A DNA stretch of 64,000 nt from Patescibacteria group bacterium (lineage in GTDB: Bacteria > Patescibacteriota > Patescibacteriia > UBA9934): contig JBAYHI010000002.1 in assembly GCA_041666205.1 (NCBI GenBank), positions 64,725 to 128,724 on the forward strand. Direction: 5' to 3'. A program made the translations under genes and the position numbers. Shown here piece by piece: positions 16,090 through 54,928 of the stretch (positions within the stretch are counted from its first letter, which is position 1; each line of letters begins with the position of its first letter). The notes beneath the pieces are model-generated. The model saw only the letters and a list, made by a program, of their open reading frames with translations, did not search any database and was not told the DNA's origin.

Positions 16090-16098
16090 ACGAGGGGT

Positions 16099-24926: not shown

Positions 24927-24941
24927 ACAAAATTATTGCCT

Positions 24942-32030: not shown

Positions 32031-32098
32031 TCCAGCACACCAACCCGTCACCTCGCTCGGGGCGCTTCTCTCCTCGAAGTACCCCACCCCTTTCAAAT

Positions 32099-32139
32099 AA
32101 AAGCACCCCGCCGATTGTGGCGGAGCGCTTTTGTTTTTT
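32099..32139. terminator. bidirectional terminator, copy 1 of a duplicated element
   Basis: AAAAGCACCCCGCCGATTGTGGCGGAGCGCTTTTGTTTTTT; near-identical copy at 36187-36236. Confidence 0.55.
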
Positions 32140-36186: not shown

Positions 36187-36236
36187 AAAAGCACCCTGCC
36201 GATTGTGGCGGGGCGCTTTTGTTTTTACTTGAAAAA
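36187..36236. terminator. bidirectional terminator, copy 2 (overlaps uppP stop)
   Basis: AAAAGCACCCTGCCGATTGTGGCGGGGCGCTTTTGTTTTT, 2 mismatches versus the copy at 32099. Confidence 0.55.
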
Positions 36237-37031: not shown

Positions 37032-38921
37032 TTACGAGTTGAATTGCACAATTTCCCCTGGCTTTGGAGATCCTGCTGCGTGATCACTCCCCGGCGTTTG
37101 AGACGTGGGCGCGCTACTTGTTGGCGTCTTCTTTTTATGACGACGTCGACGCTTACTGCGCTCGGGCGCTTGCGGAGGCACAGTTCCCATTGGCGCTTTT
37201 ATCGGCACCGAAATAGGTACTGCAGGTGCAACCTCCCGCGCCATCTGCGCAGGCTTTTCCATCGCCGGTCGCGCAACAGGAGCGGGTTTTGCACGCTCCG
37301 TTAATTCCGAAAGTGAGGCGCTGCTTGATTCTTCTTTTGTAATAAGTTCCCCATCCATGATTTTTGGAACTTCTGTGATCACCTTCTTTTCTGGTCGAAA
37401 CGGAGCCGGAGATTTCTTTCCTTTTTCACGCTCCTCTTTAATAAGCGGCATGCACTCTTCACAATAAATCGGGCGCGAACGATCGAGCTCTACTGGAATC
37501 GCAAAGGTTTTTCCGCAACGCGTGCAGGTATATTCCTGGCTATATTTTGCTTTCTTCGCCGCTTCTTTTTTATCTTTCACCTCTTTATATTTTTCGTCCA
37601 AATCCACGCCCTCACCAAATCCACTCCAGGTCGCCACATGTTCTTCAATGGACGCGCGATTTCCCGCGTAGCGTTCACGAGATTGCGCCACGACCCGTTC
37701 TTGACTTCCTGTTTTTTGCGCAATCGGTGGAAGGGTGAGCGCGGAAAATGGCGCAGAGGTGACGCCGTCAATCATGAGCTTCAAATAAATTTGGAATTTC
37801 GGCAAATTGATTAAATCCTCCGGCAAAAACCGCGGGGTAAATTCATCCTCCATAAATGTGGCGTCTGGCGAACCAACGCGGAATGTAATGATCGTACCCA
37901 CGTTTCCAAATACGGCATCGCGCACCGACGTATTCCCGCCGTAATCGAGTTGAGAAATATACTGGTGCGCCATGATGAGGTTCAGGCGATATTTACGTGC
38001 TTCAGAAAGAATTGACGCAAAGGATTCAACCGCAAAGTTTTGAAATTCATCAACGTAGAGATAAAAATCTTGACGCTCACTTTCAGGCATATCCACACGC
38101 TCCATGGCAGCCATGGAAAGCTTGGTAACAATCATCCCTCCGAGCAAACGCATGGCATCTTCTCCAATACGTCCTTTTGCCAAATTCACAATAAGAATTT
38201 TCTGATCATCCATGATGCTGCGCAAATCGAGCGTGGATTTTGCTTGCGCCACAATATTTCGCATGACCGAGGAAGAAAGGAATTGTCCAACTTTATTTTG
38301 AATAGGCGCCACGGCCTCGGACGCAAACTTGCTTTCGTATGATGCAAATTCCGTCACCCAGAATTGTTTGACGATCGGATCTTTCACGTTTGCAATAATT
38401 TCTTTTCGATACGCGGCGTCCGATAGCATGCGGTTAATCCCCAAGAGTGTGGTATTGGGCGTATCCATGAGCGCCAAAATCGTATTATTGAGAATATATT
38501 CCATGCGTGCGCTCCACACATTTTCCCAGATTTTCTTGAATACACTCATCATGCCCGCAGCCACCAAATGCTTCTGATCGGGTCGAACTGCTTCCAAAAT
38601 ATTGAATCCAATTGGATACTCAAAATCCGCCGGGTTAAAATACACCACGTCGTTTATGCGCCACGACGGAATATAGTCGAGGAGTTTCTCTGCGGTATCG
38701 CCGTGCGGGTCAATATAGCAGGCGCCGTGGCCAGCATAGATGTCAGAGAGAATCATGTTCTCAAGGAGTGTAGTTTTCCCCATGCCGGTTTTTCCAATCA
38801 CATAGACGTGCCGGCGACGATCATCGGTTTTAATGCCAAATTTATGCATCTGATTGCGAAAATTCGTTTTCGCAAAATAGATGATGTCTTTTTCGTGATC
38901 GTGGGGATAGCGCATTGGCAT
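37032..38921 (-). CDS. TraD/TrwB-type coupling-protein-like ATPase (629 aa) with C-terminal zinc ribbon and low-complexity tail
   Basis: Walker A HVYVIGKTGMGKT, CYIDPHGD, Walker B LYVDEFQNF, AHQYISQL. CxxC...CxxC near the C-terminus. Paralog of the ATPase half of 18407..20932. Confidence 0.6.
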   Translation of the reverse strand: MPMRYPHDHEKDIIYFAKTNFRNQMHKFGIKTDDRRRHVYVIGKTGMGKTTLLENMILSDIYAGHGACYIDPHGDTAEKLLDYIPSWRINDVVYFNPADFEYPIGFNILEAVRPDQKHLVAAGMMSVFKKIWENVWSARMEYILNNTILALMDTPNTTLLGINRMLSDAAYRKEIIANVKDPIVKQFWVTEFASYESKFASEAVAPIQNKVGQFLSSSVMRNIVAQAKSTLDLRSIMDDQKILIVNLAKGRIGEDAMRLLGGMIVTKLSMAAMERVDMPESERQDFYLYVDEFQNFAVESFASILSEARKYRLNLIMAHQYISQLDYGGNTSVRDAVFGNVGTIITFRVGSPDATFMEDEFTPRFLPEDLINLPKFQIYLKLMIDGVTSAPFSALTLPPIAQKTGSQERVVAQSRERYAGNRASIEEHVATWSGFGEGVDLDEKYKEVKDKKEAAKKAKYSQEYTCTRCGKTFAIPVELDRSRPIYCEECMPLIKEEREKGKKSPAPFRPEKKVITEVPKIMDGELITKEESSSASLSELTERAKPAPVARPAMEKPAQMAREVAPAVPISVPIKAPMGTVPPQAPERSKRRRRHKKKTPTSSAPTSQTPGSDHAAGSPKPGEIVQFNS

Positions 38922-38924
38922 AGA

Positions 38925-40517
38925 CTAAATCGGGAGATTTGTAGGCACATCGTTTTTGCCATCGATTGTTTCGGGCGATGCATCAAAGCCCGGTGGAAGT
39001 GGCGCCGGCATTCCGGCACGGGGCCGGTACAAATCGTCTGGCGTTGACGCAACCGGCATGACGCGGTCATAGGAGCGATCATCGCCTTGAAGCGAACGCG
39101 TTGGCGCGGAAAGTTTTGGCACCACGAGTGGCCCTGTATCTTTTGGTAAACTCTTTTTTGTGACGAGCCCATCGGTTGTAGAGCGATCCAAATTCGGCAA
39201 ATCAGGTTCATTGGCCCCGGCCCAATTGAGCTCAGACGGCGCTTCTGAACGGCGCGAAGAAAGTCGCGCAAGCACGGGCGTGCGCGCATCGCCCGCTGGA
39301 AAATGAAATAGCGTTGCGAGCTCGGCCGAGTTCATATAAAACACGCTCGAGGACGCAAACGGATGACGCTTCTTGTAGCGCTTCACCAAATTGCGTTGTT
39401 TTCCAGGAAGTTGCCACTCCATCCAGAAATAATCGTCTTTTGGCGTAGAGGCCTCGTGAATTCCAATCGAGTTTAGCGTGAGATCTCCAAATTGGTGGAA
39501 ATAGCCCTTCATCATGGAGGCAATCGTTCCCTTGCGGAATAATTCTTTTTTTGCAAAGTACACGAATCGGATTTTCGTTTGCCAACCGAGTTTCGTAATT
39601 TTCAAACGCACGGCTTCCATTTGATCACGCTCTTCTGGCGTGATTTTGAACATCTTAAAATCATCGGCTTTCTTTTCCGGCGATGCACCCCCAAGCGTCA
39701 ACCCGGTGAGTTGACTCACAAATTCCCCGGGAATCCACCCGATTCCGCTCGAGAAAAACCCAGACTTTGGAGCATCAACATCGCGACCGTATAATTTTTC
39801 AATGAATTTCTTCCCTTCCTTGGCCCAATCCTGCTCATCGGGTTGTTTGATAATGAGCTGAATCATGAGATTTTCCCCAGGGCGCATTTTTCCCATCATT
39901 TCCAAAAGCGGAAGAATCGTATCTTTGTACCGATTATCTTTTTCCCCCATGTGCTCGAATTGCTCATACGTGCGAATCGGCAAAAAATTCTTTTTCTTAA
40001 GAATCATTTCCGTTCCCCAGCAATCCCATTCTTCATTTGGCCATTCATCGGGAATAATGCCGATATAATCTTCCACCTCGGTCATCTGAGCCTCGGGATA
40101 TTGCGCATAGAGCGCCGCTTCCAAGAGGTCGCGATATTTTGATTGCACCCGCATATAATATTGCAGGTTGCCACCAATTGACACAATCTCCAATGAGAAA
40201 AACGCTTGAAATTTTCCGAGCAGCCATTCCTCACGCCACGTAATAGCAGATTTACTTCCTGCAATATTATTGAAAAAATTCTCCATGCCTTTTGGCGTTT
40301 GTACGGCATCGAGTGGAACCGTAACCGCAAGCAAGTGCCATTTCAAATTATCCCAATATTCGCCTTGCTTATAATCTTGCCAGACTTCCACAAGACCCCA
40401 CACAATAACGCCAAAAATTGGCACCCATCCAACCATAAACAATGCATGAGCTGCCATGATTTCGAGTGGCGTTGTCGCAAAATAGTGCGAAACAATTGCG
40501 GACAATTCAGAAATCAT
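38925..40517 (-). CDS. membrane-anchored protein homologous to the N-domain of the 841-aa fusion
   Basis: N-terminal TM helix. Blocks conserved with 18407..20932 (LAVTVPLD/LMVTVPKF, AQYPEA/AQYPDA, FLPIRTYE/VLPIKTYK, ELATLFHFP/EMASLWHLP). Ends 3 nt before the ATPase gene. Confidence 0.5.
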   Translation of the reverse strand: MISELSAIVSHYFATTPLEIMAAHALFMVGWVPIFGVIVWGLVEVWQDYKQGEYWDNLKWHLLAVTVPLDAVQTPKGMENFFNNIAGSKSAITWREEWLLGKFQAFFSLEIVSIGGNLQYYMRVQSKYRDLLEAALYAQYPEAQMTEVEDYIGIIPDEWPNEEWDCWGTEMILKKKNFLPIRTYEQFEHMGEKDNRYKDTILPLLEMMGKMRPGENLMIQLIIKQPDEQDWAKEGKKFIEKLYGRDVDAPKSGFFSSGIGWIPGEFVSQLTGLTLGGASPEKKADDFKMFKITPEERDQMEAVRLKITKLGWQTKIRFVYFAKKELFRKGTIASMMKGYFHQFGDLTLNSIGIHEASTPKDDYFWMEWQLPGKQRNLVKRYKKRHPFASSSVFYMNSAELATLFHFPAGDARTPVLARLSSRRSEAPSELNWAGANEPDLPNLDRSTTDGLVTKKSLPKDTGPLVVPKLSAPTRSLQGDDRSYDRVMPVASTPDDLYRPRAGMPAPLPPGFDASPETIDGKNDVPTNLPI

Positions 40518-40578
40518 ACGTTGTTGGTATTATAGCACAAGAAAACAAAAGCGCTGAGAATTTCTTCTCAGCGTCTTC

Positions 40579-40662
40579 GCCGTACGGGCGGGGTCTCCCC
40601 GCCCGTCGTCGGGTCGGGGAACCCGACCCCTACAGCGTAAGGGCATGGCGTGCCATGCCTTT
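40579..40662. repeat. hairpin-pair intergenic repeat, copy B
   Basis: GTACGGGCGGGGTCTCCCCGCCCG...GGGTCGGGGAACCCGACCC-CTACAG-CGTAAGGGCATGGCGTGCCATGCCTTTAC between secF and the N-domain gene. Confidence 0.55.
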
Positions 40663-41569
40663 ACTTTTTCTGCCACTTCTCCCAAAGCACCAAGAGCGGA
40701 CTTGCGAGGAAAATGGATGAATAGGCGCCGCTCGTGATTCCAATGATGAGCGCGAGCACAAATGGGCGTGTGGATTCCCCACCGAAAATGAAGATGGCAA
40801 TCAAGGTAAGGAGCGTCGTGAGCGTGGTATTGATGGATCGCGCAAATGTTTGCACAATACTTGAGTTCACAATCTCGCCAAAGGAAACGTCAGTGTGGCG
40901 ATTCTTATGCAGATTTTCACGGGTGCGATCGAATACAACAATCGTATCGTTAATGGAGTACCCCATGATGGTGAGAATTGCTGCAATGAATGCGGTATCG
41001 ATTTGATAGCCCCAATAATGCCCAAGCACGGCGAATACTCCAACTGGCAAAAGAATGTCGTGCAAGCCTGCAAGAATCGTGAGCAATCCGTATTTCCACG
41101 AGGCAACTGGCTTTGAAACATGTCGAAATGCCCAGGCAATATAGGCAATGATGAGAACCGAAAGCACAATTACGGCAACGATCGATTTCTTTTTAAGCTC
41201 TTCTCCAAATGTCGGACCAATGGCTTCGTAGCGGAGTTCTTGCAAATCCTCACCATAAGTTACCTGCAAGGAATCCAAAAGCAAGCTGTGCTCTTCTTGT
41301 GTGAGCGTTCGTGTACGAATGAGCATGGTACCACTGCTGCTATTTTGAATCGTGGATTCATACCCAAAGGCCTGGATATTTGCCTGAAGATCAGAAATCT
41401 CAATTGCCGATGCAGGTTTGATTTCCAAAAGACTACCTCCGGTAAAATCGATCCCGAAATTGAGTCCGAAAATCGCAATTGCCACAATCGAACCAACCAT
41501 AAGCGCACCCGATAGGATGAGCCACACCCTTGAAAGCGAAATGAAAGGAAATTTTTCAACAATCGACAT
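40661..41569 (-). CDS. secF: protein translocase subunit SecF
   Basis: 302 aa, SecF periplasmic loop and 6 TM helices, immediately downstream of secD. Confidence 0.85.
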   Translation of the reverse strand: MSIVEKFPFISLSRVWLILSGALMVGSIVAIAIFGLNFGIDFTGGSLLEIKPASAIEISDLQANIQAFGYESTIQNSSSGTMLIRTRTLTQEEHSLLLDSLQVTYGEDLQELRYEAIGPTFGEELKKKSIVAVIVLSVLIIAYIAWAFRHVSKPVASWKYGLLTILAGLHDILLPVGVFAVLGHYWGYQIDTAFIAAILTIMGYSINDTIVVFDRTRENLHKNRHTDVSFGEIVNSSIVQTFARSINTTLTTLLTLIAIFIFGGESTRPFVLALIIGITSGAYSSIFLASPLLVLWEKWQKK

Positions 41570-41575
41570 ATGCTG

Positions 41576-43621
41576 TTATTTAGGTTGGCGAACGCCGTAA
41601 AGCCATGTTTTTCGCAAGAAGGACCAAATAATTGACCACTTCAAGAACACGCGTGTGACCGTCATGGCCGTAAGCATAGAAAGAAGGACACCGATACTCA
41701 GCGTGATTGCAAATCCTTTAATGGAACTCGTGCTCAAGAAGAACAAGACGGCTGCCGCGATGAGCGTTGTGAGGTTTCCATCGCGAATAGAAGTCCACGC
41801 GCGGCGGAATCCTTCGTCAATCGCTGTATTCAAATCGCGTCCGCTACGTAGCTCTTCTTTCATGCGTTCAAAAATCAGCACGTTCGCGTCCACAGCCATA
41901 CCCATAGAAAGCACAAACCCCGCAATACCAGAAAGCGTCATGGTAACGCCAAGCCATTTGTAGAGCGCGAGGTTCAATGCCGCATACACAGCAAGAGCCA
42001 AGACTGCTAACAATCCTGCATATCGGTAATACGCAATCATGAAGAGCGCCACGAGTGCAAACCCAACGAGTGCAGCTTTAATACTCAAATCAAGCGATGC
42101 TTGCCCGAGCGTTGGCCCAACGGTTTGTTGATTGAGAAGCGTGACAGGAACTGGAAGTGCACCAGCATTTAATCGTTGAACCAAAAGTTTTGATTCTGTG
42201 AGTGTGAAATTTCCTGTAATCGATGCGGTTCCGCCATAAATCGCTTCTTGCACGGTTGGCGTTGAAATGGCGCTTCCATCCAAGAAAATGCCAATCATCT
42301 TTCCAACATTTGATGCAGTGAGTTCTTCAAATTTCGTTCCGCCTTCGCTTGAGAAATTCAAGACAACATATGGTGCCCCGGTATTTGGATCAAATGCAAC
42401 CGCTGCATTTTTCAAATCTTTTCCGGAAAGCGTTGTATTGGTCCACGGATTTGTTTGAATCACGTCCGATGCAGTTGTGAGCGGCATTTTTACGATCGCG
42501 ATTTCATACGCTGGCACAGCTTTTGTGTCGCGTCGATAAATGATGTGATAGCCGAAGTCTGTTTCCACCACATCAGAAATCTGCCCATCGGTGAGAGCGA
42601 ACGCTGCAGTTTCGAATGGTTCAACCGTCATCCCCTTTTTGATCCAATCCAAATCCCCACCGGTTGGAGCCGACCCAGTATCTTCCGATACTTCGGTTGC
42701 TTTTTCCGAAAAATTCTTGGTGGTGAGTTGTGTTTTCAAATCCTGCGCCAACGTGAGTGCCTCGGCCTTGGTACGCGTATTTGTGCACCCCTGGGATTCA
42801 GCGTGACAAATAAGAATATGCGAAAGCTGTGCCGAATCTTCAGATTTTGTGGAAAGGAAATTCACGACAAGCAAATCGCTTGCATCCTCATAGACAAGAG
42901 GAATGATTCCGGTCTTATATTTCTTTGTAGCGATTTTTGATGCTAATGCCGTATACATGCCATCGTCGGCATTGATCCAACCAAAATAGCCGTTATTCCA
43001 TTTTGTGGTTTCATCGGTTGACGCCTCTTTTGCGAGCGTGGAAAAATCTTCTCCGTTTTGCGCGCGCTCCAAGATTGCGTCAGCGGCAGCTCGTTCTGTT
43101 TCTTGTGCCGCGTCAATTTGTACTTGTTGTTCTGCGGTTGGTTCGGTTTGGAGTTCTGATTCTGGCGTTTGTGTTTTGAATTCCAAAATTGGCGTTTCCC
43201 CAATCATTTTAATTGCGCTCTCAACATCAAAGACGCCAGCAAGTTCAACAATAATCCGATAGTGTCCACCGGAAATATTGGTCTGAACCACTGGCTCGGC
43301 AATCCCAAACGCGTTCACACGACGTTCAATGACTTCACGTGCACCTTCAAGCGCTGTGGCTTTGTCGGCTTCGGCGATCGCGGACATATCGGCCTCGTAG
43401 ACAAGATGCGTTCCACCCTGCAAATCAAGCCCGAGCTTGAATGGATTCTCCGAAAGCGTTGGCCCAAAGCCAATTGCACTCACCGCTTTATTCCATGGAC
43501 CCGGGTATGCAACCGATCCCATGAGCAATGAAACAATGATGATGCCAAGGACCGAAAGGTGCAGATTGCGTCGTAGGTGCGTTTTTTGTTGATTCATACC
43601 AAAAAAAGTTTGTGACGCCAT
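41576..43621 (-). CDS. secD: protein translocase subunit SecD with inserted parvulin-type PPIase domains
   Basis: SecD motif LGLDLQGG and C-terminal 6-TM region. Periplasmic region contains a clear PpiC/parvulin domain (GGDLDWIKKGMTVEPFETAAF...DFGYHIIY) and a degenerate second one. Start at MASQTFFG or MNQQKTH. Confidence 0.8.
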   Translation of the reverse strand: MASQTFFGMNQQKTHLRRNLHLSVLGIIIVSLLMGSVAYPGPWNKAVSAIGFGPTLSENPFKLGLDLQGGTHLVYEADMSAIAEADKATALEGAREVIERRVNAFGIAEPVVQTNISGGHYRIIVELAGVFDVESAIKMIGETPILEFKTQTPESELQTEPTAEQQVQIDAAQETERAAADAILERAQNGEDFSTLAKEASTDETTKWNNGYFGWINADDGMYTALASKIATKKYKTGIIPLVYEDASDLLVVNFLSTKSEDSAQLSHILICHAESQGCTNTRTKAEALTLAQDLKTQLTTKNFSEKATEVSEDTGSAPTGGDLDWIKKGMTVEPFETAAFALTDGQISDVVETDFGYHIIYRRDTKAVPAYEIAIVKMPLTTASDVIQTNPWTNTTLSGKDLKNAAVAFDPNTGAPYVVLNFSSEGGTKFEELTASNVGKMIGIFLDGSAISTPTVQEAIYGGTASITGNFTLTESKLLVQRLNAGALPVPVTLLNQQTVGPTLGQASLDLSIKAALVGFALVALFMIAYYRYAGLLAVLALAVYAALNLALYKWLGVTMTLSGIAGFVLSMGMAVDANVLIFERMKEELRSGRDLNTAIDEGFRRAWTSIRDGNLTTLIAAAVLFFLSTSSIKGFAITLSIGVLLSMLTAMTVTRVFLKWSIIWSFLRKTWLYGVRQPK

Positions 43622-43653
43622 TCTAGTCGACTGCCATAAATTTGCAAGGGGTC

Positions 43654-44010
43654 CTATTCGTTTGATTTTTTGAACGTCACGCGGAATGACGGGTACCACT
43701 TCTCGTTATAATCATCAACAATTTCGACTTCTTTATTTTCCACGTACATATTGAGCGCCAAATCCGCCAGGAGTTCGAGATCGGTATCGATATCGACTTT
43801 GAGCTCTTCCATGCGCGCAATATCGGCTTTAGAAATTGCTTTCACTTCATTTTCAAGTGCCTTGCGATCGCCTCGCAACGCTTTGAGTTGATCTTCGATT
43901 TCTTTGAATTTTGGACTGGCTTCAAGTTCGCTATGGATTATTTTTGCGATCTCGGCTTTTTCCTTTTTATTTTTGGCAAGACGTTTATAGACTTCTTGTA
44001 GTGTTGGCAT
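43654..44010 (-). CDS. hypothetical coiled-coil protein
   Basis: 118-aa Lys/Glu-rich helical ORF, no motif. Confidence 0.35.
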   Translation of the reverse strand: MPTLQEVYKRLAKNKKEKAEIAKIIHSELEASPKFKEIEDQLKALRGDRKALENEVKAISKADIARMEELKVDIDTDLELLADLALNMYVENKEVEIVDDYNEKWYPSFRVTFKKSNE

Positions 44011-44043
44011 ATATTTGTGGAACGATTATATCACACCACCCCC

Positions 44044-44096
44044 GTGTCATTGCGAGGAGGCTTTAGCCGACGAAGCAATCTGCTCGAGCGGATTGA
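44044..44096. repeat. GTCATTGCGAG...CGAAGCAATC palindromic repeat (half-copy plus loop)
   Basis: GTGTCATTGCGAGGAGGCTTTAGCCGACGAAGCAATCTGCTCGAGCGGATTG; full copy at 48316-48401; related to the GIY-YIG element inverted repeats. Confidence 0.55.
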
Positions 44097-44148
44097 CAAA
44101 CGCAAGAAAAATCGACAAGATTGCGCCACGTTCAACATAGGAGGACCC

Positions 44149-44601
44149 GTGCCTGCTATCAAACTGCTCAGGGAGTTACGAAGGATTCAACTGAATCCCC
44201 GACAGCTTCGCAAGATTGCGGTCGGTACTGCCCTGTTCCTGATCGGGCGTGTGCCTGAAGTACAGAACGAGACAACAAAGCCCGAACTCGAGCCCATCCT
44301 GATGAAGCTCAAGAAATGGATGAAGGATCCGGCCTATCCCATCCCAGTGGACGAGCTTGTTCGGAAGGCAACAGAGGCATACGTCCTGCATGGACTGCCA
44401 GATGTCGACTCCGACATCTGGAGGATCTGCGCGATCCTCTTCTGGACTATGCAGAGCTTCCGGGATGACACGGATCGCCGCGCCATCGAGCTCGCCGTGG
44501 AGCGCGTCATCAGCTTCTCGTTGGGGCAAGAGGCACCGCGAGCCGCCTGGGAAATCCGACAGATGATCGAGGATTCCCAGACCGACACAGATTCCAGCTA
44601 G
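44149..44601 (+). CDS. hypothetical protein Q1 (GC-rich module)
   Basis: About 150 aa from GTG preceded by an AGGAGG SD site; the track's N-terminal extension is read-through of the repeat. Confidence 0.4.
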   Translation: MPAIKLLRELRRIQLNPRQLRKIAVGTALFLIGRVPEVQNETTKPELEPILMKLKKWMKDPAYPIPVDELVRKATEAYVLHGLPDVDSDIWRICAILFWTMQSFRDDTDRRAIELAVERVISFSLGQEAPRAAWEIRQMIEDSQTDTDSS

Positions 44602-44653
44602 TTACGCCTTCTTCTCGGGCCGTCACCCCTCGGTGGCGGTCTTCGACGTTTAA

Positions 44654-45184
44654 ATGGGTGAATGGATTGACAAAATCGAAAAAAAGATGCAGAATTCACC
44701 CGATTCGCCTAGCGAATTTGAGAGAAATCTCCAACCTGCCGGAGGGCAGATGCATTCGTTGGAACAGCTTCGAGAAATGAACGAGAAACTCACCCACATG
44801 GAGCGGTGTCGGGCAGCGATCTACTACATCACGCAGGAACGCTTGAAGCTCGAGACGATCGGCGACGAGCCGTGGAGCCACTTCGACGGTGTGCTCCGCG
44901 ACGTCGAAGCTTTCGTGAACGAAGGCGCAGAGCTCTCGGAAGATCTGCACAGGCGGGCCGAAGAGGTGTTCGTGCTGGGGGCGCAGATCTCGCACGAGTA
45001 CAAGCGTCTCGGCGAAGCACTTTTCCTCGTCGCGCATCTCGTGTTCTTCCGCGAGGCCACAACTTCGAGCCAAGTCTTCTTCGAGGCCGTCATCGCGGCA
45101 TTCGAGAAGCCCGAGTTCGAATGCACGATTCTCGGCCCGGTTCCCGAGCTCGGCCCCGACTCCCGCATGATCTCGGAGATGTAG
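44654..45184 (+). CDS. hypothetical protein Q2 (GC-rich module)
   Basis: 176-aa helical ORF, no motif. Confidence 0.4.
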   Translation: MGEWIDKIEKKMQNSPDSPSEFERNLQPAGGQMHSLEQLREMNEKLTHMERCRAAIYYITQERLKLETIGDEPWSHFDGVLRDVEAFVNEGAELSEDLHRRAEEVFVLGAQISHEYKRLGEALFLVAHLVFFREATTSSQVFFEAVIAAFEKPEFECTILGPVPELGPDSRMISEM

Positions 45185-45308
45185 AGCTCAGCCCCCTCGT
45201 CTCGGCCGCCATCCCACTCGGGCTGGCGGTCGTCGCTTTTTTACCGAGATCCTCAAGGCGGGACTCCTAGCCCTCCGACCTGTACACCGAAGCCTTGGCG
45301 AAGGGGGG

Positions 45309-45337
45309 TTGACTTTTTTGAAATTTCAGCGCATAGT
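45309..45337 (+). promoter_or_regulatory. sigma70-type promoter TTGACT-N17-CATAGT upstream of Q3
   Basis: -35 and -10 boxes with 17-nt spacer about 55 nt upstream of the GGAGGGG SD site and ATG at 45393. Confidence 0.4.
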
Positions 45338-45392
45338 CATTCAGTTTTGGTGGTTCTGTTCTTGACCGAAACAACATTCTCCTGGAGGGGAG

Positions 45393-45908
45393 ATGGCAAA
45401 ACTGAGTCGGCATCTGCCGCTCGACATCCGCAGGCACCTTGAGACGGAATTTGCAGATCCGGATGCACAGCGTCTCGTACGCATTGCATTCGTGCTTTGC
45501 GAACTCACGGAAAGGTGCATGTATCGTGAGATTACGGATATGGGTGAGCTCCTGCACCATCCGGCCATCAAGGCATTAGTCGCGCTTGGCAACTACATCG
45601 GTGCCGATAATATCGAGCAGGCGGAGCACTGGCGCCCGGAGATCGAGTGCTTCTCTCAAGCAGAAATCGAACGCGACTATTTCGAAAACCTCTGCACCTA
45701 CCACGGATCAAAGGCAATCCGTCACACCTGTGCACTCCTCATCGAAGACGATCCGCGTGAACGGTGCGATCGACTCCTCGACGTGATCCGTCACACGCGC
45801 GATGCGGTTCTCCACAGCGACCCGGACGGCATGACCGTTACCCTCGCCTGGGGGAAAATCCGCACCGTCATCCTCCGAACCTGCAACCACCGTGGTTGCA
45901 TCCTCTAG
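45393..45908 (+). CDS. hypothetical Cys/His-rich protein Q3 (GC-rich module)
   Basis: 171 aa with scattered Cys/His pairs (CELTERC, CTYHGSKAIRHTC, NHRGC); no known motif. Confidence 0.4.
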   Translation: MAKLSRHLPLDIRRHLETEFADPDAQRLVRIAFVLCELTERCMYREITDMGELLHHPAIKALVALGNYIGADNIEQAEHWRPEIECFSQAEIERDYFENLCTYHGSKAIRHTCALLIEDDPRERCDRLLDVIRHTRDAVLHSDPDGMTVTLAWGKIRTVILRTCNHRGCIL

Positions 45909-46071
45909 CGCCTCCTTACGGCGCAACCTAAAGACCACCCCTTCCTCCTTCGCTCCTTCGGAGCTACGGAGGACAAGCAGGGTGGCCTTATTCGTTTCAA
46001 TGGACGTTGCATCCCCCTTCGCTCTTCGAGCTTCGACGGGACAGGTGCAACGTCACTACGGCAAGGATTTT
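45909..46071 (+). other. GC-rich structured non-coding segment (three nested stem-loops)
   Basis: GCGCC-TCCTTAC-GGCGC; CCACCC...[GCTCC-TTC-GGAGC]...GGGTGG; CGTTGCA-33nt-TGCAACG containing GCTC-TTCG-AGC; then a T-rich stretch. Confidence 0.3.
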
Positions 46072-46821
46072 TTAAATTTGAATCTTTGAAAACAAATGAC
46101 TCCCAATCACCAACACAATCGCTGTTGCGATTCCCATGACGGCAAAATCAATTCCCAAACCAAAGTGACTTACTCCAATCAATCCCCCACGCAGCCCGTC
46201 CACTGCATAGGAGAGTGGATTCAAATAAACGATCCGCTCCATCCAGCCACTTAATCCAGCAAGTGGAAAAAGAGCGCCGGAAAGAAAATAAAGCGGCATG
46301 ATCAAGAAATTCATGATGAGTTGGAACCCGCTCGAATCTCTCAACGTTGAAGCAATCGCTGTTCCTACAGCCGTAAAAAATAGCGCGGTTATGAGCATCA
46401 TGAGAAATGCAAGCAGAGCCCCTGCGATACTCACCGGGTGAAATCCAACAATAAAAGAAATGAGGAAAATGACTGTTCCTTGAAAAATGGCAACCGTGGC
46501 GCCTCCGAGTGTACGACCAATCATAATCGAGAGACGAGAAACCGGAGCTACAAGGGTTTCCTTCAAAAATCCAAATTGTCGATCCCAGATGATTTCAATC
46601 CCAGAAAAAATCGAGGCAAACAGTACGCTCATGGCAACGATTCCTGGCACCAAAAATTGAATATAATCCCCTTGCCCTGCCTGCTTGAACACCGAGCCAA
46701 ATCCATATCCCATGGCAAACAGGAAGAGAATCGGCTGGCCGAGTGAACCAACAATGCGCGTTTTTGAACGGAAAAATCGTTTGAGTTGTCGGAGCCAAAG
46801 AATGTAAATTGTTGTAAACAT
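46072..46821 (-). CDS. ABC-2 type transporter permease
   Basis: 249 aa, 6 TM helices, ABC-2 family pattern. Confidence 0.75.
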   Translation of the reverse strand: MFTTIYILWLRQLKRFFRSKTRIVGSLGQPILFLFAMGYGFGSVFKQAGQGDYIQFLVPGIVAMSVLFASIFSGIEIIWDRQFGFLKETLVAPVSRLSIMIGRTLGGATVAIFQGTVIFLISFIVGFHPVSIAGALLAFLMMLITALFFTAVGTAIASTLRDSSGFQLIMNFLIMPLYFLSGALFPLAGLSGWMERIVYLNPLSYAVDGLRGGLIGVSHFGLGIDFAVMGIATAIVLVIGSHLFSKIQI

Positions 46822-47626: not shown

Positions 47627-48322
47627 CTATTCTTTCTCAATCACCGTACGAAACGCCTCTTCGGCTTTTCCTTTTGAAACTCCGAATTTACCAAGATGCG
47701 CCACGACTTTTTCGATTTTCTTATTGTTCCCGCAGAAATTTGAGATATCCTCATCGAGTCCGACGAATCGATAAAGTTTCTGCCAAAGTGCTTTGCGATC
47801 CATGAATTTCTGCACCGAGTGCTGTGAGATTTTCCAAATTTCTCCATCAATCCCAAATCGCCAATACATCCAGAGCTGCACAAAATGAAAAACGTCTTCA
47901 GCTTCTTCGTGCATGCCTTGTTTGTTCCATTTGAGAACCTCATCGACGTATTCACGGACTTCAGAAAAAACCCGACTCAAATTGATGCGTTCCCCAGACG
48001 TATATTCTTTGATATAAGCGCTGATTTTCATATTCTTGTTTGTGAGTTCTGCGTGATGCGCTCTATTCGTTTTTCCGAAAAATTCTATACTCTTTTCGTC
48101 ACTTTGCTTTTTCATTTCATCGGTCATCTCATTCCAATTCTCCCAAATGCGCCGTTGTTCTTCCTTCGTCGGTTCCTCATGGATGAGTTCAATTCCCGTC
48201 TCCGCGCGCCAACGGTGAACTGGGTCATTCAATAATTTTTCTGCCTTTTCCGGGTAGAACTTTTTGATTTCGTCGATGTTGTACGGACGCTGGTACATAA
48301 ATAGGTCCATTTCCTGTGTCAT
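47627..48322 (-). CDS. hypothetical protein (AT-rich island)
   Basis: 231 aa from MTQEMDLF; Trp-rich, no motif. Longer track ORF starts inside the palindromic repeat. Confidence 0.45.
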   Translation of the reverse strand: MTQEMDLFMYQRPYNIDEIKKFYPEKAEKLLNDPVHRWRAETGIELIHEEPTKEEQRRIWENWNEMTDEMKKQSDEKSIEFFGKTNRAHHAELTNKNMKISAYIKEYTSGERINLSRVFSEVREYVDEVLKWNKQGMHEEAEDVFHFVQLWMYWRFGIDGEIWKISQHSVQKFMDRKALWQKLYRFVGLDEDISNFCGNNKKIEKVVAHLGKFGVSKGKAEEAFRTVIEKE

Positions 48323-48401
48323 TGCGAGCCCAGCCATGCTGGGCGAAGCAATCTACTCGAGTGGATTGCTTCGTCGGCTGGGGGCCTCCTCGCAATGACA
48401 C
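48316..48401. repeat. GTCATTGCGAG...CGAAGCAATC palindromic repeat, full copy
   Basis: Two imperfect arms of about 36 nt (GTCATTGCGAGCCCAGCCATGCTGGGCGAAGCAATC / GATTGCTTCGTCGGCTGGGGGCCTCCTCGCAATGAC) around loop TACTCGAGTG. Confidence 0.6.
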
Positions 48402-48408
48402 AAAAAGT

Positions 48409-48711
48409 TTACGATTCTTCCAAAATAATTTTCTTCTTAAACCCACCACGTTCTTTCAGCTTCTTTGCCTTAACCGACGCGAGTTTCCGTTTATTGAATT
48501 TTTTGTGTTTACACATCGCCTCGAGGACTTCCAAAATATCCGCCATTTCTTCTACAGATTCGTCTTCATTGAATTCCGCAATTTCTTCTTGCAATTTTTC
48601 CTTGAGCTTGAGCCAATACTCTTTTTGCGTGGCAATATGCACAATCGGCACACCGCCGTTGCGTTTTATAAGTTGCGGAATCTTGTCACGAATGAGCTTA
48701 TGGTATTTCAC
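48409..48711 (-). CDS. MazG-like all-alpha NTP pyrophosphohydrolase
   Basis: 100 aa; pattern MKYxKLIRDKIP...EExADILEVL...ERGGF typical of small MazG/HisE-like NTP-PPases. Confidence 0.55.
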   Translation of the reverse strand: MKYHKLIRDKIPQLIKRNGGVPIVHIATQKEYWLKLKEKLQEEIAEFNEDESVEEMADILEVLEAMCKHKKFNKRKLASVKAKKLKERGGFKKKIILEES

Positions 48712-48715
48712 ACGT

Positions 48716-49129
48716 TCAGATTATTTTTGAAAGATCCCCGTTGATAATCACCGGCTTCACGGCTTCGATTTCTGTTTTGTAAAATTCAATTTCCGGAATC
48801 GGATTTAAAAGAAAAATCTTTTGGTTGAGCACATGAGCAAATCCAATTTCCATGAGCGTATTCCCGCCAATGTAATTTTTAATTCCATGTTTGTCGACAT
48901 TTAACACAAGAATCGCATCCCCATTTTGCATTGGCTTCCAAAATTCCCGGATTGCATCATAATTATTTTTGTGATCGAGCTTCAAAACCTCTTTTTCTTC
49001 GTCGCTCTTTCCAATATAGGCGTCCACGAATCCAGAAACAAATACCTGATGCCCTAATGCAGTAAGCTCATCACGAACTTCAAGCATTTTTTCTGCGAAT
49101 TGCATACTTCCACAAATTCCAATACGCAT
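48716..49129 (-). CDS. nucleoside 2-deoxyribosyltransferase/Rcl-like protein
   Basis: 137 aa; N-terminal IGICGSMQFAEKM resembles the DNPH1/Rcl and NDT CGS motif; paralog at 49609..50034. Confidence 0.45.
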   Translation of the reverse strand: MRIGICGSMQFAEKMLEVRDELTALGHQVFVSGFVDAYIGKSDEEKEVLKLDHKNNYDAIREFWKPMQNGDAILVLNVDKHGIKNYIGGNTLMEIGFAHVLNQKIFLLNPIPEIEFYKTEIEAVKPVIINGDLSKII

Positions 49130-49137
49130 AGAGAAAA

Positions 49138-49605
49138 TTATTTTTTTATGGATTGAATCACCTTCAACAATTCGTCCGAACGACGCGAAGGGATGGCAAT
49201 GGTTTTTCCAGAAGACAACCGGAACATCACTCCGCCTTTACATGGAGAAAAAAGTAAGCTCTTCATTTGTTTGAGTTGCGTTGTTTCCTTTTTCTCCTTT
49301 GGAATGATCGGGGTTGCAAAATCACGAAAGAAAAAGCATGGTGCGATTTCTACAATATCCTTGAGAGGATATATTTCCGTTTCATTTTTTGTAACAAATG
49401 TTAACGTCGTGCCCTGGACAGAAACCGTATATTTCTTCGTGAGGCGAATCATGGAACTCACCACAAAAACAAATGCAATAAAACCCACGGTCCACGCGTT
49501 ACTATACAAATACGCGAGCGTGCTAAGAATAAGAAAAAGCACGACCGGAAAAATCATATTCTGAATTTTGTATCGGATGACCTCTTCAAAATTTGGTTGG
49601 TCCAT
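49138..49605 (-). CDS. hypothetical membrane protein
   Basis: 155 aa, two N-terminal TM helices then a soluble domain. Confidence 0.4.
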   Translation of the reverse strand: MDQPNFEEVIRYKIQNMIFPVVLFLILSTLAYLYSNAWTVGFIAFVFVVSSMIRLTKKYTVSVQGTTLTFVTKNETEIYPLKDIVEIAPCFFFRDFATPIIPKEKKETTQLKQMKSLLFSPCKGGVMFRLSSGKTIAIPSRRSDELLKVIQSIKK

Positions 49606-49608
49606 ATG

Positions 49609-50034
49609 TTAATTATTTAACGCGTCAAAATCCCCATGTAAAATCGTTGGCTGAAACGACGCAACTTCATGTGCCCAGCGGTGATCCTCAGGGTTTGGAT
49701 GAGCGAATAAAAGGAAAATCTCTTTCCCTAGATAATACGCAAGTCCCATTTCCATGAGCGACGACGTGCCAATATACCCGTCAACGCCATTCTTGGGATA
49801 ATTCAGGAAAACCACGCTGTCACTTTGCGCCAATAAATCAAAACAGCGCTTCATGACATTGTTCTCAATAAGATGCGCCCGATCGACAGTCAAATCATCA
49901 ATTAACCCCGAATCCTCTACATGCAATTCTGCATCACACGGAACAAAAACCTCGTGGCCCATTTTTGATAGTTGCGCCTGAACGTCTAGCATTTCCTTTG
50001 CAAATGACATGCTCCCGCACAACATGATTTTCAT
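49609..50034 (-). CDS. nucleoside 2-deoxyribosyltransferase/Rcl-like protein
   Basis: 141 aa; IMLCGSMSFAKEM; paralog of 48716..49129. Confidence 0.45.
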   Translation of the reverse strand: MKIMLCGSMSFAKEMLDVQAQLSKMGHEVFVPCDAELHVEDSGLIDDLTVDRAHLIENNVMKRCFDLLAQSDSVVFLNYPKNGVDGYIGTSSLMEMGLAYYLGKEIFLLFAHPNPEDHRWAHEVASFQPTILHGDFDALNN

Positions 50035-50451: not shown

Positions 50452-53265
50452 TTATGCTCCGTGGCACTTCTTATATTTTTTCCCCGACCCGCAAGGACAT
50501 GGATCATTGCGTCCAACCTTGGCAACACCGGATGAGTCCGAGACGGACTGCGCGGCGCGGTGAATTTTTGCTTCTTCTCCGCCCGATGTTTTTTGCGCGC
50601 CACTGAATTGCAAATTCGCCTTCTCAATGACGCTTGGCGCCATGGCAATGAGTTGCTGGGCGGCGGCAGTTTGCTTGAGGATTCGGAACACGTTGTAGAC
50701 GACTTCGTGTTCAATATTTTCGATCATGCCATTGAAGAGATCAAACGATTCGCGTTTGTATTCCACAAGCGGATCGTGCTGACCGTATCCTTGCAACCCA
50801 ATGCTTCGACGCAAGTACGTCATGTTTTCAAGATGCGAAATCCACGCATTGTCGATGGTGCGCAAAAGGATGGTGCGTTCAATACGATGCAAGAGCTCCT
50901 TGTTCTGGAACTGTGCTTCCACATTGGCAAACTGCCGCCGCACCAAGGCCATGGTGCCCTCAATTACTGCCGTGCGCTGCGCTGCCAATCGCTCGCGATC
51001 TTTTGAAATCTCGCGAAGTTCAAGACGAACAAGCGTTTCAAATTCTTCGTCAACGTCAACGATGGTTTTGAAGACCTCAATAATTTCTTTCGGATCCCAA
51101 TCACCTTTTACTTTCAAATCCCCTTCTTTGAACTGATCCGGGATATCGTGAATCTCGGCAATATCGCCCGTGTGGAATAGCACAACGCGTTCAATTTCGC
51201 GCTCCATGTGCTTCAAAACTTCTTCGCGTGGCGAGAACATCTCGTCGCAAAGCACTTTCTTACGTCGCTCGTAAATTGTCTGGCGATGTTTGTTCAAAAC
51301 GTCATCGTATTCAAGCACGTGCTTTCGGGTATCGAAGTGATAGCCCTCAACGCGCACCTGCGCTTTTTCGAGCGAACTCGTCACCATCTTGCTTTCAATC
51401 GGCGTCTTCTCATCCATCTTGAGCGCATTCATCATGCCCTTAATGCGATCGGTTCCAAATACGCGCATCAAATCGTCTTCAAGCGACACGAAAAATTGCG
51501 TGCTCCCCGGATCGCCCTGTCGCCCAGCGCGACCACGAAGCTGATTGTCAATGCGACGTGATTCGTGACGCTCAGTGCCGATGACGTGCAGTCCCCCAAG
51601 TCCGCGCATGGTTTCTTGCTCGGCTTTATCGGGAGGATTTCCACCCAAAATGATGTCGACACCACGTCCAGCCATGTTCGTGGCAAGGGTGACCGCCCCA
51701 CGATGACCAGCCTGGGCAATGATTTGCGCTTCACGCTCGTGGTTTTTAGCATTGAGCATTTCGTGCGGAACGTTTGCCGCGCTCAAGAGTTCGTGCAGGA
51801 GTTCGTTTTTCTCGATCGAAACCGTTCCAACGAGCACCGGCTGGCCTTTTTCATGCAAGGCTTTGACTTCATCAACAACCGAAAGCCATTTTCCTTTTTC
51901 AGATTTATAAATGCGATCAGTCAAATCTTTTCGAACGCAATCTCGGTGCGTTGGAATTTCGGCAACCTCCAGTTTGTAGATTTTGAAAAACTCTTCGGCT
52001 TCCGTGGCAGCAGTTCCAGTCATGCCTGAGAGTTTTTTATACATGCGGAAATAATTCTGGAACGTGATGGTTGCCATGGTGCGACTTTCACGCTTGATTT
52101 CCACCGCTTCTTTTGCCTCAATGGCTTGATGCAGTCCATCGGAATATCGACGACCTTCCATGATACGACCAGTAAACTCATCAACAATTTTTACTTCGCC
52201 ACCCACGACCACGTATTCACGATCCTTTTTGAAAATCGCATGAGCCTTAAGAGCTTGCTCGGCATAATGAATGAATTGGAATTGCGCCGCAGCGTAGAGG
52301 TTATCCACTCCCAAGCGTTGCTCGATCTTTTTAAGACCGGCCTCGGTATACGTTGACACACGCATTTTTTCGTCGACATTGTAATCCTCGTTTTCTTTCA
52401 AATCGTTTACGATGCCTGCGAATTTATAATATAAATCCGCGGACTCTTCTGCTGGAGCAGAAATAATAAGTGGCGTGCGGGCTTCGTCGATGAGAATCGA
52501 ATCGATTTCGTCCACAATCGCGTAATGCAATTCGCGTTGCGCCATCTGCTCCTTATCGGTTGCCATATTGTCGCGCAAATAATCGAATCCAAATTCATTA
52601 TTTGTGCCGTACGTGATATCAGCCGTATACGCTTCGCGACGACTGGCCGGTCGCAAGAAATCCATTTGCACCAAAAACGATCCGGTCGTATCGCGTTCAA
52701 CATCCTCTTTTTCCTCCGCGCGGAACGTATCGTCGTAGCGATATCCGCCCTCGTGTTGAATGACGCCAATGGTGAGCCCTAAGAAATAGAAAATCTGTCC
52801 CATCCACACGGCATCGCGTTTTGCCAAGTAATCGTTGACAGTAACAACATGCGTGCCTTTTCCTTCAAGTGCATTGAGATAAATTGAAAGCGTTGACGTG
52901 AGAGTTTTTCCTTCACCAGTTCTCATTTCTGCAATCATGCCGCGATGCAAAGCAAATCCACCCATAAGCTGAACATCGTAGTGTCGCTGATGAAGGGTGC
53001 GACCAGACGCTTCGCGCACAACAGCGAACGCCTCAAACGAAATGTCGTCGAGGCTCTCACCTTTTTCGAGGCGGGCCTTGAATTCAGCGGTTTTTGCTTT
53101 GAGCGCATCGTCTGAAAGCGCTTTGATTGTTTCTTCGAATGCATTGACCTTTGCAACATCTTCGCGCAGGCCAGCAATCATTTTGATGTTGGGGTCTCCA
53201 AAAAGGGCCTTCCAAATATTTGCCATAATAGCCCCCAGGATACGTTTTATGGGGATAAAAATCAA
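50452..53265 (-). CDS. secA: preprotein translocase ATPase SecA
   Basis: DEAD-like motor, 937 aa, C-terminal zinc-binding [14 protein letters not shown]; TTG start. Confidence 0.95.
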
Positions 53266-53299
53266 ATTTCGGCTTGCTAGCGAGAATGAATCGTCACCA

Positions 53300-53944
53300 T
53301 CACTTTGTTAAGGTGCATAAATATGCGATATTTACTTTGGTTATGTCTTCTATCTTTAAATCTGCTCGAAGAAAAATATTTTCCAATTGTTCTTTAGAAA
53401 ATTGCTCGGAGATGTTGTCACCCACACTTTCATCAAAAATGACTTTTCCATTTTCTATGGTTTTAATCGTAATCCCTGATGCTTTATAGACTTTTATTCT
53501 TTCTTCTAACGCATCTTCGGAAAACACGCTAACAATAATTTTTCCAGAGTTTTTTAGGACTCGTTTCATTTCTGCAAGAACAATAAATTTCTTATCCGCA
53601 AAATTCGCAAACGTTGTCATACAGACAACAAAATCAAATTCATTATTCTCAAAAGGTAATTTTGTTGCATCGGCTTTGAAAATTTTGATTGTAGGATAAC
53701 CAGAAAAATGATCTTTTGCATCAGTGATCGCCTTGTCATCATGATCAATACCAATGACATTTTTGGTCACCGGTAACATGTCGAGAATACTTCTTCCATC
53801 CCCACAGCCTACTTCGAGAACTGAGGCATTGGGAGTTATTATTTTCTGAAGATATTTTTTCTCTTCTTCGAACCATTTGTGATAGGAATTAGGTAGATTT
53901 TTTAAAATATACTCCCAATAATCAGTATTTGTCTTCATAGACAT
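53300..53944 (-). CDS. class I SAM-dependent methyltransferase (AT-rich island)
   Basis: Motif [11 protein letters not shown], 214 aa. Local GC roughly 25-35%, far below the genome. Confidence 0.7.
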
Positions 53945-53982
53945 AACAAAAGTTGATATTTATGTTTCTTACATCCAATACC

Positions 53983-54027
53983 TTGTGAGCTGGATTCGTG
54001 AGAATATAAACGTAAAACTCTCGCATA
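53983..54027 (-). pseudogene. truncated GIY-YIG gene remnant (first about 14 codons only)
   Basis: Reverse complement reads ATG CGA GAG TTT TAC GTT TAT ATT CTC ACG AAT CCA GCT CAC (MREFYVYILTNPAH), matching the intact copies. Sequence then switches to the AT-rich methyltransferase island. Confidence 0.5.
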
Positions 54028-54064
54028 TAAATTCAAACTTGTTTGTCATCTTTCACCCTCTTTT

Positions 54065-54527
54065 CGTCATCCTGAGCGATAGCGAAGGATCCCTCGACAA
54101 TTATCTTGAGATCCATTCGTCGCTGAATTTCTTTTTGCTCCTCAGGATGACGAATGAAAGGAGATGCTCCATTTTTTCCCCGTCATCCTGAGCGATAGCG
54201 AAGGATCTCACGACAACTCATCATATAGGTCCTTCCATTCTGGATTCAATGAATTGATTAGCGCTTCTTTTTTATTTCTCTTCCACCCTTTAATACGTTT
54301 TTCAGCTTCTATCGCCGTCGTCGGCCCCTCACAAACATCAAAATAGACAAGCTTTTTGAGATTATATTTCTTTGTAAATCCTTCAATTTTCTTTGCTCGA
54401 TGTTCTTGAACTCTGCGCAAAAGATCATTTGTCACTCCGGTATACAAAACTGTGTGGGCCGGATTAGTGAGAATATAAACGTAAAATTCTCGCATATCTT
54501 GGGATCCTTCACTTCGTTCAGGATGAC
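54065..54527 (-). mobile_element. GIY-YIG mini-element copy 2
   Basis: Composite hairpin CGTCATCCTGAG...CTCAGGATGACG (54065-54152), 3' IR 54181-54209, gene 54208..54495, 5' IR 54502-54527. Same parts as copy 1 but hairpin on the opposite side. Confidence 0.65.
54208..54495 (-). CDS. GIY-YIG family nuclease (95 aa)
   Basis: About 80% identical to 12293..12580; GIY-YIG core motifs. Confidence 0.8.
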   Translation of the reverse strand: MREFYVYILTNPAHTVLYTGVTNDLLRRVQEHRAKKIEGFTKKYNLKKLVYFDVCEGPTTAIEAEKRIKGWKRNKKEALINSLNPEWKDLYDELS

Positions 54528-54559
54528 GGCAGAGGGAAAATGATAATTTAAGAGTTCAA

Positions 54560-54910: not shown

Positions 54911-54928
54911 ATAAAAATTCGTTAAGAA

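Follow-up and report, generated by a model that had tools for sequence, protein, structure and literature searches.

A GC-rich islet of three orphan genes, probably acquired, in a housekeeping region of a Patescibacteria genome

Within a 64,000-nucleotide (nt) stretch of a Patescibacteria genome (contig JBAYHI010000002.1; the whole stretch is called the window below), a segment of about 1.98 kb at positions 44096 to 46071 carries three open reading frames (ORFs), Q1, Q2 and Q3, in the midst of housekeeping genes. We propose that this segment is an islet acquired recently by horizontal transfer from an unsampled donor and that it consists of three autonomous orphan-gene units resembling the morons of phages, a reading to which we assign a probability of about 0.65. 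The proposal draws on a shift in composition, a coding periodicity in the frames of Q1-Q3, expression signals in register with them, the absence of homologues, a truncated repeat at the left edge and a sister islet in the same window; the insertion route and the nature of the donor are what we infer from these observations. The proteins of the window are deposited at NCBI as MFA65222xx, with locus tags WCT24_013xx-014xx, and belong to a metagenome-assembled genome of the Patescibacteria, or candidate phyla radiation (CPR).

Results

Composition and trinucleotide usage delimit the islet. Its guanine-plus-cytosine (GC) content is 56.8% compared with 47.5% in the rest of the window, and the foreign composition reported in a first-pass annotation of this DNA is therefore real, with these figures replacing the 60% and 49% given there. 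In 500-nt intervals the backbone has a mean GC of 0.476 (standard deviation 0.035), and besides the islet just one other long stretch in the window reaches 0.55 or more. When trinucleotide usage is normalised for GC, the islet correlates with the backbone at 0.65 (0.65-0.67 when the second islet described below is included), against 0.88 +/- 0.05 for backbone with backbone. Roughly 17 distinct GC-high segments of islet size were counted in 1.46 Mb of related contigs.

The GC of codon positions 1/2/3 is 0.61/0.40/0.71 in Q1, 0.62/0.36/0.74 in Q2 and 0.64/0.40/0.67 in Q3; the order, third position above first above second, is that expected for real genes and fits a genome of about 57-60% GC, and the third-position value (GC3) of 0.67-0.74 contrasts with 0.44-0.52 in the flanking host genes. 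Because of this three-base periodicity, together with regulatory signals in register with each ORF, coding appears the clear favourite. We weighed it against the explanation that Q1-Q3 are not functional genes, long frames having arisen by chance in GC-rich foreign DNA that is non-coding or in decay. Q1, Q2 and Q3 have no homologues except themselves among 5.8 billion proteins (word-indexed search), long antisense and alternative-frame ORFs also occur in the islet (eight of these gave no Pfam match), in every 2 kb of Markov-simulated sequence about 1.8 stretches of 140 codons or more lack a stop, and the starts assigned to Q1 and Q2 differ between gene callers. However, the periodicity falls exactly in the frames of Q1-Q3, where GC3 exceeds the second-position value by 0.27-0.38 over about 150 codons each, several standard errors by our own estimate, and three same-strand, non-overlapping ORFs of at least 140 codons appeared in just 1.8% of Markov-1 simulations of the islet. 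In addition, every ORF is preceded by a promoter-like site and a correctly spaced GGAGG and followed by a hairpin, and the single-sequence model of Q2 is a confident helical bundle, which is rare for random sequence. An islet of chance frames thus seems unlikely.

The three ORFs have a common layout, namely a TTGAC-type -35 box, a spacer of 17-18 nt, a -10 box, a GGAGG ribosome-binding site 3-4 nt before the start codon, the ORF itself and a GC-rich hairpin. Q1 (150 aa; 44149-44601, plus strand) begins with GTG 4 nt after AGGAGG, and its promoter-like site (44093-44122, plus strand) combines a perfect -35 box, TTGACA, with a 17-18-nt spacer and a -10 box (CAAGAT or AAGATT) that is weak and was for that reason missed by the consensus scan; alignment of the upstream regions placed its -35 region, GGATTGACA, at 44090-44098. 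The hairpin 3' of Q1 (44614-44650) has a 10-bp GC-rich stem followed by UUCGACGUUU; the fold of 44599-44660 reaches -23 kcal/mol (z = -2.5), and with a strong stem before a mixed U-rich stretch it resembles an intrinsic terminator only in part. Upstream of Q2, the consensus scan found TTGACA-N17-CAGAAT at 44667-44695 (10 of 12 consensus positions; -35 region GGATTGACA at 44664-44672 in the alignment). Q2 had been called as a protein of 176 aa, but that reading, from an alternative start at 44654, contains Q2's own promoter-like site, and we therefore prefer the ATG at 44750, which lies 3 nt after GGAGGG, was chosen by one gene caller and gives 144 aa (44750-45184, plus strand). A hairpin resembling an intrinsic terminator follows Q2 at 45203-45242, with a 9-bp GC stem and then UCGC and U6. 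Q3 (171 aa; 45393-45908, plus strand) starts at an ATG 3 nt after GGAGGG, and both the consensus scan and the alignment recovered the TTGACT-N17-CATAGT site already noted for it, at 45309-45337, with the -35 region GGGTTGACT at 45306-45314; the sizes first given for Q1 and Q3 likewise hold.

Where 1.4 promoter-like sites would be expected, the consensus scan returned six, and two of these immediately precede Q2 and Q3. Q1 and Q2 resemble each other in their signals, with a 22-nt direct repeat (82% identical) in the promoter regions and a 12-nt repeat in the terminator stems. The gaps between the ORFs, 52-208 nt long, hold hairpins and promoter-like sites, and there is neither overlap nor translational coupling. 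We thus read Q1-Q3 as three tandem monocistronic units with predicted signals of their own, and not as the small operon that had been proposed. Two further arrangements were rejected. An integron gene-cassette array is at odds with the promoter-like sites of the individual ORFs and with the window's gene tables, which list no integrase; inspection of 44602-44653 and 45185-45300, by eye and not with a formal attC covariance model, revealed no R''/R' core pair either. For a toxin-antitoxin or toxin-immunity module, the gaps of 52-208 nt are occupied by hairpins and promoter-like sites, and no Pfam, NCBIfam or PADLOC domain was found.

The proteins themselves remain outside known families, as the first reading had it: family and structure searches were empty. 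Q1-Q3 had no match in Pfam, NCBIfam, PHROGs, PDB sequences or IMG/VR, nor with any family of PADLOC-DB 2.0 at E up to 1, and the islet DNA matched no phage or plasmid by blastn. An exhaustive HMMER search with Q3 against 1.84 billion cluster representatives returned Q3 itself plus two sub-threshold matches, which we rejected as statistical artefacts because the match is to a motif of 22-24 residues repeated many times in a PKD-repeat protein and a tandem-repeat protein. Paralogy among Q1-Q3 was also rejected, since BLASTP and Smith-Waterman shuffle tests were not significant; a short shared 'xLxRxAxxxVLHxxPD'-like stretch lacks statistical support. No 19-residue window of any of the proteins has a Kyte-Doolittle mean above 1.1, and signal peptides and membrane segments are absent; the isoelectric points are 5.9 (Q1), 4.8 (Q2) and 5.9 (Q3), and Q3 is rich in cysteine and histidine, as had been noticed (8 Cys, 10 His). 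The single-sequence AlphaFold2 model of Q2 is a six-helix bundle over residues 4-117, of moderate confidence (predicted local distance difference test score, pLDDT, 72.6; predicted template modelling score, pTM, 0.66), for which Foldseek gave no significant fold match (best E 0.55 in PDB and 0.87 in BFVD). The all-helical character described for the three proteins is thus predicted only, with a moderately confident model for Q2 and a poor one for Q3; taken together, the products are predicted to be soluble and probably mostly helical. No enzyme-like or toxin-like feature or domain was found in Q1-Q3, and the trio occurs as a conserved neighbourhood nowhere among the loci searched.

The left edge of the islet is the break point of a palindromic repeat. 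GTCATTGCGAG is present at 44046, and the element that contains it (44044-44095, plus strand), GTGTCATTGCGAGG...CGAAGCAATC...CTCGAG...GGATTG, was aligned to both orientations of a complete, near-perfect 86-nt palindrome of the same GTCATTGCGAG...CGAAGCAATC family at 48316-48401, our reference copy (fold -59.1 kcal/mol, z = -8.9). The palindromic repeat reported at the start of the cluster therefore exists, but only as a left half: the match to the full copy breaks off sharply behind GGATTG, at 44095/44096, instead of running on into the second arm. The -35 box of Q1, TTGACA, straddles this break point. A degenerate arm at 31662-31700, where GC dips midway through the second islet described below, covers the spacer between the -35 and -10 boxes of the promoter-like site belonging to the ORF at 31749-32030. 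Of the three repeat loci that the window contains, two thus abut GC-rich inserts, which is suggestive of palindromic repeats acting as an insertion hot spot. Units of the family were also found in two other Patescibacteria contigs, one of them as a solo half, and because copies occur there and elsewhere in the window, the repeat is a host-type intergenic palindrome and not a cassette-specific recombination site. A literature search with the repeat sequence returned unrelated primer matches only. The reference copy overlaps the annotated start of a gene for a 236-aa hypothetical protein (47627-48337).

The second islet (30700-32130, 56.9% GC) lies 12 kb from the first and adjoins tRNA-Glu (30577-30651, minus strand) on the 5' side of the tRNA. 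It contains three small orphan ORFs, at 30765-31214 (plus), 31323-31610 (minus) and 31749-32030 (plus), all singletons without a family match, with GC3 of 0.69-0.74; each comes with a GGAGG-type ribosome-binding site and a hairpin terminator, and TTGAC promoter-like sites were recognised for 30765-31214 and 31749-32030 at least. The GC-normalised trinucleotide correlation between the two islets is 0.844, on a level with that within the backbone; islet with backbone stays at 0.65-0.67, and none of 400 backbone segments attains the value found between the islets. The codon ATC is preferred at 0.85 and 0.78 in the islets compared with 0.32 in host genes, and preferences for CTC/CTG, GAG and AAG are likewise common to both islets and unlike those of host genes. 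Since the two islets agree in base composition, in oligonucleotide and codon usage and in the style of their genes, they probably have a common type of unsampled donor, such as a mobile element, a virus or a partner organism, of about 57% GC.

The same data bear on whether Q1-Q3 could be native, fast-evolving, lineage-specific genes whose composition reflects selection or expression level and not transfer. CPR genomes contain many lineage-specific hypothetical genes, no donor was identified for Q1-Q3, and their promoter and Shine-Dalgarno style is ordinary for bacteria. Nevertheless, a GC3 shift of about 0.2-0.25 and a GC-normalised signature common to the second islet lie far outside backbone variation, and the three genes are oriented opposite to nearly all of their neighbours. 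A native origin appears very improbable when these are set against it.

Concerning details of the second islet, one gene caller chose an antisense ORF (30744-31007) over 30765-31214; the latter combines a TTGACA promoter-like site and a GGAGG ribosome-binding site with an N-terminus that resembles a signal anchor. The islet may be made of two inserts that flank the repeat arm at 31662-31700. A 48-nt terminator-like hairpin followed by a T-run is present in two copies, 90% identical, at the right edge of this islet (32099-32146) and at 36187-36234.

The first islet occupies an intergenic spacer bounded by the stop codon of the gene for the ABC-2 permease and by the promoter of a gene for a 118-aa protein that heads the SecD-SecF genes, and neither is disrupted. 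The C-terminus of the permease aligns through its last residue with relatives of 61-70% identity, and the permease is therefore not truncated. On the other side, between the repeat and the 118-aa gene, a perfect extended -10 box, TGATATAAT (44025-44033, minus strand), lies 14 nt upstream of the ATG; it was read from the sequence and not flagged by the consensus scan, and since it survives beside the islet, the host promoter upstream of SecD-SecF seems untouched. Its position implies that the 118-aa gene has a very short 5' untranslated region or is leaderless. Around the islet, the gene tables, which cover 3-64 kb of the window, show housekeeping genes, nearly all of them minus-strand, including those for LepA, DnaK/DnaJ/GrpE, CysS, SecD/SecF, SecA, MurB/MurC and the ABC-2 transporter, and Q1-Q3 are the sole plus-strand genes across about 20 kb.

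The source is a metagenome-assembled genome, and a chimeric insertion from another organism by misassembly or misbinning was accordingly considered. The junction region was reproduced in three assemblies made by different pipelines, namely a MEGAHIT-style assembly in ENA (252-kb contig), Logan (SRR6484324) and a JGI metagenome contig, all of them 100% identical to the window over every compared stretch (6.4 to 20.5 kb); the Logan contig covers both islet junctions and the JGI contig the right one. These assemblies may derive from the same or related samples, which leaves an artefact some room. Even so, host gene order resumes on both sides, whereas misassembly rarely inserts 2 kb and returns, and a second islet of the same signature lies inside another housekeeping stretch. 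We consider an artefact extremely unlikely.

At the right end of the islet, a hairpin-rich tail (45908-46073), part of which may be host DNA, lies between the convergent Q3 and ABC permease genes. It comprises a small hairpin (45908-45924), a compound hairpin (45935-45985) and a further compound hairpin that an outer stem encloses (45986-46066); the T6 run behind it (46068-46073) overlaps the permease's TAA stop codon (46072-46074). The fold of 45906-46075 reaches -68.7 kcal/mol (z = -4.7 against shuffles), and the structured tail of 160 nt with three hairpins that had been described is confirmed, with the hairpins in series and not nested; the 'UUCG' strings, previously taken for loops, lie in stems, and the predicted apical loops are 3-nt UUC. 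The minus strand folds equally well or better (-74.7 kcal/mol, z = -4.6), from which it follows that the signal comes from inverted repeats in the DNA and is not strand-specific. Rfam gave no match in 43500-46600 beyond two chance eukaryotic ones at E > 3 (in the whole window only three tRNAs reach the gathering score), and searches of the window, of IMG/VR and of related Patescibacteria loci totalling 1.87 Mb turned up neither copies nor relatives of the tail. In a GC-corrected structure scan of the window the tail ranks about ninth (z about -2.7), and native spacers at 40545-40665 (four GC hairpins in 120 nt), 24940-25010 and 5400-5570 resemble it, so that its reading as a special structured RNA is unsupported. 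These spacers are arrays of 2-4 GC-rich hairpins, some ending in CCTACA or CCTATA, and are more structured than the tail after GC correction.

A GC stem-loop followed by a U-tract, the hallmark of an intrinsic terminator, is present after Q2 and at the outer stem of the tail. Bidirectional intrinsic terminators occur between convergent genes, and the tail is like them in having GC hairpins between convergent stop codons that fold on both strands, with a plus-strand U6 behind the outer stem and an A-tract at the opposite side; unlike them, it is longer and compound, with three hairpins in about 160 nt, and the minus-strand hairpin nearest the permease has no U-tract. The simplest reading is that the tail is a compound bidirectional terminator between convergent genes and not a separate RNA gene.

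With the tail described, the idea that Q1-Q3 form one functional cassette, for anti-phage defence, toxin-immunity or regulation, with the tail as its structured regulatory RNA, can be judged. The block is compact, co-directional and foreign, it encodes small proteins of unknown family whose orphan status means that homology excludes nothing, Q3 is rich in Cys and His, and the tail is significantly structured relative to shuffles. Against this stand the lack of any PADLOC, Pfam, NCBIfam or PHROG match, a promoter-like site and a hairpin for each gene, and gaps of 52-208 nt without translational coupling or a coupled gene pair. No enzyme-like feature or toxin-like domain was found, the trio is conserved nowhere, which removes guilt by association, and the tail, without Rfam match, relatives or strand specificity, is no more structured than several native spacers. 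The resemblance to defence or toxin-immunity systems drawn in the first-pass annotation hence has no positive support, and a single cassette is improbable.

Discussion

Our data are best accommodated by a model in which GC-rich donor DNA, of about 57% GC, would have been inserted into the spacer between the ABC-2 permease gene and the 118-aa-SecD-SecF genes. Because the left islet edge is the break point of the repeat and the right arm is missing, we suggest that the event was an insertion or illegitimate recombination at or beside the palindromic hairpin, in which the right arm would have been lost. Q1, Q2 and Q3 would then each be transcribed from a sigma-70-type promoter of their own and ended by their own hairpin, and the serial hairpins of the tail would serve as terminators that insulate the convergent transcripts of Q3 and the ABC transporter.

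The defining traits of phage morons are a promoter and a terminator of their own and a deviant GC (PMC3594210). The islet is like them in that each gene has a promoter-like site and a terminator hairpin, here as sequence patterns only, in that its GC is off that of its neighbours (56.8% against 47.5% overall; GC3 of 0.67-0.74 against 0.44-0.52), and in being an add-on between conserved genes with small products of unknown function. It is unlike them in that it sits in a chromosomal housekeeping region (SecD/SecF, ABC transporter, SecA, DnaK) with no phage genes within about 20 kb on either side, and in that three units, known from sequence alone, stand in tandem. Genomic islands and individually transferred genes are reported to be common in Patescibacteria (PMC12455944). 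Like those islands, the islet is deviant, apparently acquired DNA in a streamlined CPR genome that encodes hypothetical proteins; unlike them, it is only about 2 kb long and has no integrase, site tRNA or direct repeats. Judged as a classical genomic island, it has the atypical composition and no mobility gene, tRNA adjacency, direct repeats or length above 10 kb.

Several observations weigh against recent acquisition of three autonomous units. The gene tables contain no integrase, transposase or phage gene, the repeat search found no direct repeats flanking the islet boundaries, no tRNA target was found at the site, and the missing palindrome arm was not found at the right edge; in view of the absent mobility genes, direct repeats and second palindrome half, the insertion mechanism is a conjecture. 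Since solo half-units exist in other genomes, the apparent truncation at 44044-44095 could instead be an original solo arm. The right boundary can be placed only to within 45909-46071. No empty site, donor or homologue was recovered in a SecD-based genome scan, an ABC-permease metagenome scan or a metagenome scan with the 118-aa neighbour (zero matches); the nearest genomes in a species-level collection have SecD identities of about 33-57% (Uhr-, Falkow-, Magasanikbacteria and others), the ABC permeases of relatives are 61-70% identical, too distant for the purpose, gene order is not conserved, and the assemblies, being all identical, offer no sequence variants. Lacking a donor, a homologue and an empty site, the case for acquisition is one of composition alone, and the donor escapes detection because the proteins have no homologues at all. 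As for the units themselves, ORF length taken alone (p about 0.02) is modest evidence, the -10 box of Q1 is weak and its terminator lacks a clean U-tract, the single-sequence model of Q3 is unusable (pLDDT 45), and the function of the promoters and terminators is inferred only from matches to consensus.

Enterobacterial REP/BIME elements are palindromic intergenic repeats, and the boundary element is similar to them, as an imperfect intergenic palindrome of about 86 nt whose several copies are either complete or reduced to solo arms; such multiplicity between genes, the mark of a REP-like family, is seen within the window. It differs in its sequence family, GTCATTGCGAG...CGAAGCAATC, in that no RAYT-type transposase was seen and in having three loci in the window. 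Given that GC-rich inserts adjoin two of the three repeat loci and that two promoters in the islets have -35 boxes overlapping repeat arms, one may speculate further that both islets are the cargo of an unsampled Patescibacteria mobile element or virus that inserts at REP-like hairpins without a recognisable recombinase, that Q1-Q3 found new families acting together in symbiont-host or phage conflict, and that the compound tail is more than a terminator; we regard this wider scenario as quite improbable.

Regarding function, polymorphic toxin systems include orphan immunity-gene arrays of tandem small soluble proteins. Q1-Q3 are similar in being tandem, small, soluble and, by prediction, largely helical, with a foreign composition and no enzymatic motifs; they differ in that they lack a toxin gene, a secretion-system or Rhs/CDI context and a Pfam Imm/SUKH match, and in being separate units. 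Because Q1-Q3 are small, acidic and, by prediction, independently expressed, we offer as a tentative guess, with the odds against it, that they act through protein-protein interaction in conflict between a mobile element and its host (exclusion, anti-defence or an immunity-like role) and not as enzymes.

If our model is correct, the locus adds a further example of small, unannotatable acquired DNA to a streamlined CPR genome. It would hold three orphan families, or six with the sister islet, that have no relative in billions of sequences, a status that points to a gene pool, in viruses, plasmids or a partner organism, that metagenomics has yet to sample. The units are cleanly built in a 'plug-and-play' manner, the repeats hint that intergenic palindromes mark insertion sites, and, on the practical side, the start of Q2 is corrected, the 176-aa call having included the gene's own promoter-like site. 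This locus alone does not make a long-standing question testable.

Additional observations

Other parts of the window are also repetitive. A 300-nt repeat, 73% identical, is present at 12255-12700 and 54061-54540, together with several copies of a second hairpin repeat family, CGTCATCCTGAGCGATAGCGAAGGATC; these loci coincide with two small genes for GIY-YIG-domain proteins and may represent mobile GIY-YIG elements. Two AT-rich stretches, at 48000-50000 and 53000-55000 (GC 0.38-0.42), hold small hypothetical genes, one with a weak Pfam match to MazG (E 0.37), near annotated NUDIX genes, and are possibly other accessory regions. At 16036-16122 there is a 42-nt inverted repeat, 79% complementary, of which one arm overlaps tRNA-Gln (16098-16171, minus strand) and the other resembles a tRNA T-arm/acceptor fragment on the opposite strand. 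Finally, two paralogous loci with VirD4/TraG-like (T4SS-DNA_transf) and DUF8128 domains lie at 18407-20932 and 37032-40517, one encoding a fused protein of 841 aa and the other split into genes for 629 and 530 aa; they are linked by DNA repeats of 73-77% identity (18796/37946 and 19634/38775).

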